A program made the position numbers and the translations under genes. From Thermococcus sp. (GTDB lineage: Archaea; Methanobacteriota_B; Thermococci; Thermococcales; Thermococcaceae), in assembly GCF_027012695.1 (NCBI RefSeq), contig NZ_JALUYR010000143.1, positions 1 through 33,321 of the forward strand: DNA of 33,321 bases, read 5' to 3'. Shown piece after piece: positions 5,562 to 6,805 of this stretch; position 1 is the first letter of the stretch; every line of letters starts with the position of its first letter. A model generated the notes under the pieces. That model saw only the letters and a list, made by a program, of their open reading frames with translations, did no database searches and was not told the DNA's origin.

Positions 5562-6805
5562 ATTGCCTCCCCCGTTAGTGTATATTACTCATTTATTTAT
5601 GGTTTTCGGTTTTGTAGTCCCTGCGTTAGGGTCCTCTGCATATGTTGAGGATTGTTTTTGTTTGTATTTTAAGTTTTAATAACACTAAAATTTCACAAAT
5701 GAGTAATGTTATAACATGCTTATATAAATAAAGATTTTGCTTTTGGGGTTGTATATAACACAATCACTAGTTTTTAGTTTGTTATTTGAAATAATAAAGC
5801 AGCTTCTTACAAATGCAAAAATAATATTTTATAGCATACAAATCGTAGAAATCGATATTTGTTAACTATCTTGTGTTGTAACAAAGGGATGTTCAGCCTC
5901 CACGCATTGGCTCCTGCACACAAGTATACAGGAGAATTGGATATAAGGTACATTATATCTAATTTTAACGTACTTAGTCGACCATTCTAGGGGGCCTCAT
6001 TAAAATACCCACATGGAGAGTAGCTGGAAGCATGCTCATGCATGTGGCGTGCCTGATTGAGACGATACCCATAGGAGATGGCCAAAATTAATTTTCCCAA
6101 GGCCATTCTCTCCCCTGACGGGGGTTTCAGCGTGTGACCGTCAATAGCTGCATGTTTCTTGTGCCTTATTCCGGTAAGCTAAGGCCTTCAGAACGCCCCT
6201 TCTTGCCGGTGACTGCTATACGGTGAGATTTATAGAACGCCCCGGTAAGTATGGGATAATGCTTCCTTCTACAGAGGATTTGATAAACACAGGTTCTTCA
6301 AATGTCTGGGTTTCCATAACTTCTGATATACAGCGCCGCATCCTCTCATGCCTGCCCTTGGTGACCACCTTTGGTTGTAATCCATTTTTGGCCTGTATGA
6401 TCGGGGGTCTATGAGCAGATTATCTGTTCCTCTCGGCATCCTCTTGATGGTCCGCCTCAAAGGTCACCTAGATGTCTATCTGCATACATTCTAACGAGGA
6501 TTTATCTTTAGATATAGTAAGTTTTTTGGACTTCCTACTTATTTAAAAAGTATTTTTATTTTTATGTACACTATTGAAATTATATTGAACGCTAGCATGT
6601 TAATATTTAAACTTTTATTTATAGTCATATTTTAACGTTTTACTTTATTGCCTAAATAACGTTCTCACTTAGTCAAACCTCACCCAAAAATTTGAGGGAT
6701 AAAATCCCACACAGAATTAGGGTTCCCTAAAAATTAGCTGCAAACCACAGCGGCTTTAATCATCTAAAGAACTGCTATTGATGTAGAATTCTGAAATTAA
6801 AGCAA
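5562..6805. other. 1.24-kb AT-rich island with no credible ORF (~35-40% GC against ~55% background). It contains the promoter of the PH/SPFH operon at its left edge and a central patch of intermediate GC content (~5880-6480).
   Basis: - Composition read directly from the sequence.
- Only two 63-codon ORFs in the six-frame track, neither protein-like.
- The 10-mer ATTTTAACGT occurs at 5962 and 6632. Confidence 0.6.

Follow-up and report, generated by a model that had tools for sequence, protein, structure and literature searches.

The bacterial recombination site dif is present in single copy in the terminus region of the chromosome, and in Escherichia coli it has the sequence GGTGCGCATAA-TGTATA-TTATGTTAAAT. 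Some integrative elements, of which the CTX phage is an example, use the same recombination and are referred to as integrative mobile elements exploiting Xer (IMEX). In the archaeal order Thermococcales, the tyrosine recombinase XerA acts at dif, and binding and recombination by XerA were shown in vitro on the Pyrococcus abyssi sequence ATTGGATATAATCGGCCTTATATCTAAA (Cortez et al. 2010, PMC2958812). Resolution of chromosome dimers by XerA has been described for P. abyssi (PMC2958812) and is covered in the review of archaeal tyrosine recombinases by Badel et al., which makes no mention of IMEX. Published dif sites include those of Thermococcus sp. CL1 (TTTGGATATAA TGTACC TTATATCCAAA) and Thermococcus eurythermalis (TTTAGATATAA TGTACC TTATATCTAAA; both from Table 2 of Cossu et al. 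2015, PMC4640148), and the coordinate 483614 has been published for dif of Thermococcus kodakarensis KOD1 (PMC4640148). The subject of this report is an AT-rich, gene-free island at positions 5562-6805 of a Thermococcus contig of 33,321 nucleotides (NZ_JALUYR010000143.1), the whole of which is referred to as the window. Judged from its sequence, the island is very probably the dif-bearing intergenic region of the Thermococcus chromosome.

Identification of the dif site

The dif site at 5936-5963 is a known kind of element, found here in an uncultured Thermococcus represented by a metagenome contig. It reads ATTGGATATAA-GGTACA-TTATATCTAAT on the plus strand and ATTAGATATAA-TGTACC-TTATATCCAAT on the minus strand, and thus consists of 28 bp in an 11-6-11 layout, with two 11-bp inverted arms that differ from each other at one position and a 6-bp spacer between them. 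The site and its surroundings are delimited as follows.

5936-5963, minus strand: dif core, the predicted XerA binding and cleavage site, from the 11-6-11 layout, the dif pattern and the published sites
5905-5995, no strand assigned: extended dif region, consisting of AT-rich flanks with outer GTAC/GCAC-type inverted motifs, from the conservation of the flanks
5562-6805, no strand assigned: AT-rich intergenic region containing dif and free of open reading frames (ORFs), from GC content, ORF scan and equivalent gaps in relatives

The site is identical at 25 of 28 positions to the published dif of Thermococcus sp. CL1 and, likewise, at 25 of 28 to that of T. eurythermalis, and the TGTACC spacer is the same in all three. 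When the plus-strand arms are set against the P. abyssi substrate ATTGGATATAA-N6-TTATATCTAAA (PMC2958812), 21 of 22 positions agree. A degenerate pattern for Thermococcales dif matches at one place in the 33 kb, once per strand and with 0 mismatches on the minus strand, where chance would give 0.00 matches (100 shuffles); no second dif-like site was found in the window with up to 3 mismatches allowed. The same site was found at 20 or more Thermococcus loci and is single in each related locus.

Conservation extends beyond the 28 bp. The outer GTAC/GCAC-type inverted motifs lie about 7-10 bp and 17-20 bp from each arm, the flanks are conserved across at least 12 loci as judged from the alignment and the contexts of the sites, and a repeat search finds that the palindrome around dif reaches 26-40 nt per arm in relatives. 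Conserved dif flanks of about 23 bp were described by Cortez et al. (PMC2958812).

The site thus shares with the XerA/dif system of Thermococcales (PMC2958812, PMC4640148) the length of 28 bp, the 11-6-11 layout, the GATATAA/TTATATC core of the arms, the TGTACC spacer, an intergenic location, AT-rich conserved flanks and the gene neighbourhood known from T. kodakarensis (Alba ... dif ... TK0562/TK0563). It differs in its arm ends, which are A...T rather than T...A, and in the presence of a gene pair, p201-SPFH (see below), instead of the usual purB. The bacterial XerCD/dif system has the same 28-bp layout, arms that end in ...ATAA and TTAT..., and exchange by tyrosine recombinases at the spacer borders, but in archaea, which lack FtsK, a single recombinase, XerA, acts on two arms that are nearly identical (Badel et al.).

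Predicted role in chromosome dimer resolution

The function best supported for the region is that XerA resolves chromosome dimers at 5936-5963, and we infer this role, including the binding of XerA, from sequence identity and orthology. By analogy with P. abyssi, one XerA monomer would bind each 11-bp arm and the two dif sites on a chromosome dimer would synapse. Strand cleavage and exchange at either edge of the 6-bp spacer would then resolve the dimer to monomers before division, with no need for an FtsK-like partner. The remainder of the 1.24 kb would be an AT-rich, gene-free setting around dif, made up of an inherited series of elements on the side of the DUF134 gene and a lineage-specific upstream region of p201.

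Several points weigh against this interpretation. The single-copy status of the site is known for the 33-kb window and for each related locus only, and the outermost arm bases are A/T where the published consensus has T/A. No tyrosine recombinase is encoded in the 33-kb window, which is to be expected because xerA is not linked to dif (PMC2958812). Polar sequences (TGGT) point to dif (Cortez et al., PMC2958812), and the TGGT:ACCA counts of 22:12 to the left of the site (1-5935) and 91:102 to the right (5964-33321) have the expected direction but are not significant at this length. Finally, the identification of dif gives no reason for the retention of some 1.2 kb of AT-rich DNA about a site of 28 bp.

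Composition of the island and equivalent gaps in relatives

The island spans the exact gap between two minus-strand genes (4956-5561 and 6806-7162) and has a GC content of 37.5%, against 54.6% for the remaining window, which bears out the drop claimed in a sequence-only reading of this DNA. Its GC content is 28.2% in 5562-5880, 47.2% in 5881-6480 and 28.6% in 6481-6805, so the centre is of intermediate GC as that reading had described, and the GC-rich strings it quoted are present. All of the 12 lowest-GC 300-bp windows of the 33-kb stretch fall inside the island. The island also holds the longest stretch without ORFs of at least 100 aa (1157 bp, the runner-up being 338 bp), and its own largest ORFs are 63 aa. 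The sequence-only reading was right that the island is exceptional and non-coding, and none of the three explanations that it offered named a XerA dif site.

Since p201, the gene to the left of the island, is too rare to serve as an anchor, synteny was anchored on the nearby Alba gene, which yielded 17 loci of Thermococcus or Thermococcaceae (individual related loci are cited below by L-numbers). In a blastn comparison of the island with these loci, similarity was confined to about 125 bp directly 3' of DUF134 and a palindromic motif of 30-40 bp (5933-5973), the latter occurring in seven species and in both orientations. The order PTPS - DUF134 - dif - purB - Alba - HTH - CBS - NTPase - IF-2B, in which purB points toward dif, recurs in Thermococcus genomes and metagenome contigs. 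L001, a metagenome contig from ENA, encodes DUF134 with identical neighbours and has an equal gap of 1244 bp.

The order in the window agrees with that of TK0557-TK0565 of T. kodakarensis in gene order, gene sizes and strands, as read from the gene table. In T. kodakarensis, TK0560 (minus strand), which we regard as Alba given where it lies, its size and its very high expression, is followed by TK0561 (1365 bp, plus strand), a gene-free gap of 1889 bp, TK0562 (342 bp, minus strand) and TK0563 (plus strand). The published KOD1 dif coordinate, 483614, lies inside this syntenic 1889-bp gap between TK0561 and TK0562, and the island is therefore the ortholog of the accepted dif region.

A long AT-rich gap is not unusual for dif in high-GC Thermococcus. 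In the high-GC loci L010, L011, L013 and L017, dif lies in ORF-free gaps of 1.28-1.70 kb with 32-37% GC, against 48-53% for the whole locus, and the gap of L010 passes from AT-rich to intermediate and back to AT-rich as that of the window does. The gaps around dif are short in the low-GC loci L004, L005 and L008. The distance from DUF134 to dif is 0.5-0.9 kb in 11 of the 13 loci where both were found, and is about 1.8 kb in L143 and 2.9 kb in L157. The comparison with syntenic relatives proposed in the sequence-only reading thus found a homologous DUF134-side half and equivalent AT-rich gaps around dif.

Low-GC species also have a small, conserved membrane-protein gene (113-132 aa) that adjoins dif and points at it; the high-GC species, including that of the window, have non-coding DNA in its place. 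The gene was located at the following positions.

L004, 7570-7911
L005, 4111-4509
L008, about 3902-4276

The DUF134-side half and elements E1 and E2

The half of the island on the DUF134 side (5964-6805) is vertically inherited. It is 69.6% identical over 733 nt to that of the closest relative, L117, and aligns as well with L122, L126 and L010. Read from DUF134 toward dif, the half and its bordering gene consist of the following parts.

6806-7162, minus strand: DUF134 gene, encoding a helix-turn-helix (HTH) protein and a conserved neighbour of dif (Pfam PF02001, E = 1e-25)
6737-6751, minus strand: terminator-like hairpin with a T-run just 3' of DUF134, from a consensus scan in which the number of sites was not above that in shuffles
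6667-6735, minus strand: element E1, with near-invariant positions across 12 species, starting about 70 nt past the DUF134 stop
6548-6666, no strand assigned: AT-rich spacer between E1 and E2, about 24% GC, which holds the second copy (6629-6638) of a chance 10-mer
6517-6547, minus strand: element E2, consisting of AGTAGGAAGTCCAAAAAACTTAC (6517-6539) and the TATA-like TTTAAATA (6540-6547), a promoter-like or architectural candidate
5996-6516, minus strand: central patch, about 47% GC, lineage-specific non-coding DNA reaching from E2 to dif, which may be transcribed toward dif

E1 is made up of the palindrome TTAGGGAACCCTAA (6717-6730), a small hairpin (6696-6708), the core CTCAAATTTTTGGGTGA (6680-6696) and the tail GGTTTGAC. 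It is conserved in 12 of 12 aligned species, with many positions invariant or nearly so, and it is conserved as sequence: RNAalifold found no consensus RNA structure in it (no pairs). The E1 core (given as CTCAAATTTTTGGGTGA..GAC or as CTCAAAWTTTYNRGTGA) is unique in the window, where 0.12 occurrences are expected. In Thermococcus loci totalling about 393 kb, the core is nearly confined to places 0.4-0.9 kb from dif; it is present on both sides, is always directed toward dif and lies about 70-110 nt past the stop codon of DUF134 or of purB, the two convergent genes.

E2 has the consensus AGTAAAAAATCCAAAAAATTTAC and is present in all 12 aligned segments from DUF134 to dif. In L004, L005/L161 and L122 an inverted copy also lies across dif, and L128 and L011 have E2 on the side of purB. 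Like E1, E2 points toward dif on both sides and is nearly lacking from the remainder of the 393 kb. The window keeps only the DUF134-side copies of E1 and E2. A scan for promoters and terminators of the bacterial type gave counts equal to those in shuffles and was uninformative. Paired E1/E2 motifs around dif have the following positions.

L013, 3829-3875 and 4887-4933
L126, 2377-2425 and 3791-3839
L005, 3983 and 5196

It may tentatively be suggested that dif is more than an isolated 28-bp site and forms the midpoint of a conserved, quasi-palindromic module that extends over 1.2-1.9 kb. Each side of such a module may consist of a convergent gene, an E1 of about 30 bp, an AT-rich stretch, an E2 of about 23 bp and 350-600 bp of fast-evolving DNA, which may be non-coding or a small gene, followed by dif. 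E1 and E2 could block read-through into dif, steer transcription into dif or bind architectural proteins. Any such role, if true, could replace the directional control that is given in bacteria by FtsK and the FtsK-orienting polar sequences (KOPS).

Conserved DNA outside a 28-bp core is also a property of the plasmid sites cer and psi, and binding of architectural proteins to E1 and E2 could similarly shape the synapse. The accessory sequences of cer and psi, however, are about 180 bp long, lie on one side and abut the core, whereas E1 and E2 lie 0.4-0.9 kb away, on both sides and inverted.

Spacer orientation and divergence between near-identical assemblies

The 6-bp spacer is reverse-complemented between assemblies. 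With the sequences in the same orientation, it reads GGTACA in the window (plus strand, 5947-5952) and TGTACC in L001 (6211-6216), and the arms and flanks of dif are not inverted between the two. Across 13 Thermococcus loci, the orientation of the spacer relative to DUF134 is divided 6:7. Such flips, which occur even where the flanking proteins are 100% identical, would mean that archaeal dif is without a fixed polarity. The polarity of bacterial dif is fixed relative to KOPS and to the XerC and XerD arms, whereas among the window and its relatives the spacer can face either way with respect to the flanking genes.

Between the same two assemblies there are 22 differences in the island (1.8%), of which four are in 5947-5974. 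There is one silent change at 6807, in the stop codon of DUF134. Outside the island, no differences were found in 1806-5632 (3.8 kb) and one in 6808-10200 (3.4 kb). The island has diverged at least 10 times as much as synonymous sites in its flanks, and the borders of this divergence coincide with the gene ends.

The central patch and a possible noncoding RNA

Homologues of the central patch are found only in the closest relatives, L117, L122, L126 and L010, with 47-63% identity and large insertions or deletions, and its substitutions have no 3-base periodicity. Six-frame translations of the island gave nothing in Pfam, a six-frame pseudo-protein of 5964-6525 gave nothing at E <= 0.1 among 5.8 billion proteins, and tblastx of the island added nothing; the absence of protein-like ORFs noted from the sequence at the outset is upheld, the ORFs being at most 63 aa and without a protein homologue in six frames. 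A small ORF was suggested by the peptide CNPFL, which is common to the window and L010. This candidate was rejected, since the peptide is absent in the other relatives and there is no codon periodicity, so that the shared peptide represents conservation at the DNA level only. As a separate observation, the patch of L117 has a GC-rich insert of 91 nt (4114-4204) that looks coding and of which no other copy was found in the fetched loci.

A different explanation of the island would be that its main feature is a long noncoding RNA gene, located in the patch on the minus strand and transcribed from an E2-type promoter toward dif, with dif itself incidental. We consider this unlikely, though it accounts for some of the data. 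Differential RNA sequencing of KOD1 placed two orphan transcription start sites (TSSs) at 483534 and 483872, and the corresponding candidate small RNAs (sRNAs), TTS0483534_- and TTS0483872_-, have GC contents of 0.45 and 0.51 (Jäger et al. 2014, Table S6). Both fall in the homologous gap between TK0561 and TK0562 and on the DUF134 strand. The same study recorded orphan TSSs at the oriC region as well (1711476(+) and 1711597(+)), and one TSS that is antisense to TK0561 at its 3' end (482681(-); Jäger et al. 2014). In addition, E2 is conserved, its TATA-like TTTAAATA is about 23 nt upstream of a plausible start, and the plus strand of the patch has a folding z of -2.21.

On the strand implied by the KOD1 TSSs, however, the minus strand, the folding z is only -0.63. 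Searches of Rfam at gathering and permissive thresholds returned only chance-level matches in the island, and no tRNA or tmRNA genes were found. RNAalifold applied to the patch in five homologues gave -7.95 kcal/mol over 635 columns with 21 weak pairs and an unfavourable (positive) covariation term. Large insertions or deletions interrupt the patch in L122, L010 and L126, and its GC content of 47% is below the genome mean, compared with 0.55-0.73 for known structured RNAs of hyperthermophiles. With no Rfam family matched and no consensus structure or covariation, the suggestion that GC-rich stretches of the patch fold into a structured RNA, which formed part of the sequence-only reading, did not hold up.

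The KOD1 sRNA candidates resemble the patch in lying in the homologous gap on the DUF134 strand, in having a GC content of 0.45-0.51 and in being species-specific, since conservation of the candidates does not go beyond T. kodakarensis (Jäger et al. 2014). The likeness is one of position and GC content, and the places of the candidates relative to dif do not fit that expected of E2. E2 was for this reason rejected as the promoter of the KOD1 orphan TSS, which is 231-258 nt from dif where E2 would be expected about 650 nt away. The patch may give rise to an unstructured, fast-evolving transcript.

Turnover of DNA on the p201 side of dif

The side of dif opposite DUF134 carries the following features.

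4956-5561, minus strand: p201 gene, encoding a rare 201-aa protein with only 2 matches among 5.8 billion proteins
4016-4951: SPFH/Band-7 gene, paired with p201 (pair 4016-5561)
5562-5904, minus strand: AT-rich flank to the left of dif, 28% GC, lineage-specific and upstream of the p201-SPFH pair, with the ribosome-binding site GGGGGAGG at 5569-5576

The left flank has no homology to any related locus, and similarity to relatives on the p201 side stops within about 30 bp of dif. One homologue of p201 was found, on a contig of 1.5 kb that carries no dif information. Most relatives have purB in the interval from dif to Alba, the place taken in the window by p201-SPFH, and neither purB nor remnants of it were found in the window; the p201-SPFH pair has replaced purB on this side of dif in the lineage of the window. 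This interval is subject to turnover, with the breakpoint within about 30 bp of dif. Across loci, the cargo between dif and Alba is purB (most loci), purB with a 439-aa ORF (L013), p201-SPFH (window) or nothing (L010).

Variable gene content on one side of dif is one of the grounds for supposing that the island is a decayed insertion, such as a virus, a plasmid, a miniature inverted-repeat transposable element (MITE), an IMEX-like element or a pseudogene, with a 10-bp direct repeat as its target duplication. The GC content of the island is also low relative to the genome, and the left copy of the repeat abuts dif. This explanation is nevertheless very improbable. The half from DUF134 to dif is syntenic and homologous in related species, the second dif-like site that was sought with 3 mismatches allowed is lacking from the window, and none of the frames gave a protein match (Pfam, the 5.8 billion proteins, tblastx). 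Neither the island nor the patch, for which a search for further copies had been proposed, has another copy in the window or in 172 loci, a blastn search against plasmids and phages found nothing relevant, and a scan of IMG/VR viral contigs for dif of the Thermococcales type gave 9 matches, none of them with full arms.

The 10-bp repeat, ATTTTAACGT, does exist as claimed, with copies at 5962-5971 and 6629-6638, so that the position of 6632 once assigned to the second copy was wrong. Two exact direct 10-mers occur in the island, and composition-matched shuffles have a mean of 1.24 and at least one in 71% of cases. The repeat is uninformative because shuffles yield as many exact 10-mers, and a count at chance level leaves no ground for regarding it as a target duplication; its second copy, moreover, lies in a stretch homologous to L010. 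That copy was also tried as a degenerate dif half-site, which would be a sign of IMEX, and was rejected, as it shares only TTATA with dif and aligns to ordinary AT-rich sequence of L010. The locus is like IMEX in having variable DNA directly beside dif, but differs in that the window has neither a second dif-like site nor element genes, and no dif was found on viral contigs. The proposals that the island is a decayed insertion, a MITE or a pseudogene thus fail on the syntenic DUF134-side half, the lack of other copies and the lack of any protein remnant, and neither they nor the interpretation of the island as an RNA gene is supported.

That the island is a replication origin, or merely an enlarged promoter or regulatory region of the flanking genes, is scarcely credible. 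In favour of it, the island shares with oriC its AT-richness and its lack of genes, orphan TSSs of T. kodakarensis occur at oriC as they do in the dif gap, and the promoter and ribosome-binding site of p201 must lie in the left flank. Against it, repeats resembling the origin recognition box (ORB) or mini-ORB, sought with a mini-ORB core, number 12 window-wide against 11.6 expected and 0 in 5562-6805, the island has no tandem repeats, no cdc6/orc1 gene is nearby in the window, and DUF134 is transcribed into the island, which leaves only about 350 bp usable as an upstream region. The earlier proposal of a large regulatory region stands only loosely, in the sense that the island holds cis-acting DNA sites.

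Other genes in the window

In the neighbourhood of DUF134, positions 10150-11740 and 17011-18995 cover genes with Nitro_FeMo-Co domains and two ATPases of the MinD/ParA type with 4Fe-4S domains. At the left end of the window, positions 1-164 contain three CRISPR repeats (Rfam CRISPR-DR6) with spacers of 37-38 bp, which run off that end.

Significance

With dif identified, an unexplained island of 1.2 kb becomes an anchor in the genome of an uncultured Thermococcus, as its predicted dimer-resolution site and probably its terminus region, and such an anchor is useful to orient replichores in the highly rearranged genomes of Thermococcales. Before a long, gene-free and AT-rich gap of a GC-rich Thermococcus is taken for an RNA gene or an insertion, it should be examined for dif and for oriC. 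What most deserves further study is the possible symmetric module of E1 and E2, together with the flips of the spacer. The inverted arrangement of E1 and E2, the flipping of the spacer and the turnover of cargo next to dif bear on how archaea that lack FtsK limit Xer recombination to chromosome dimers.

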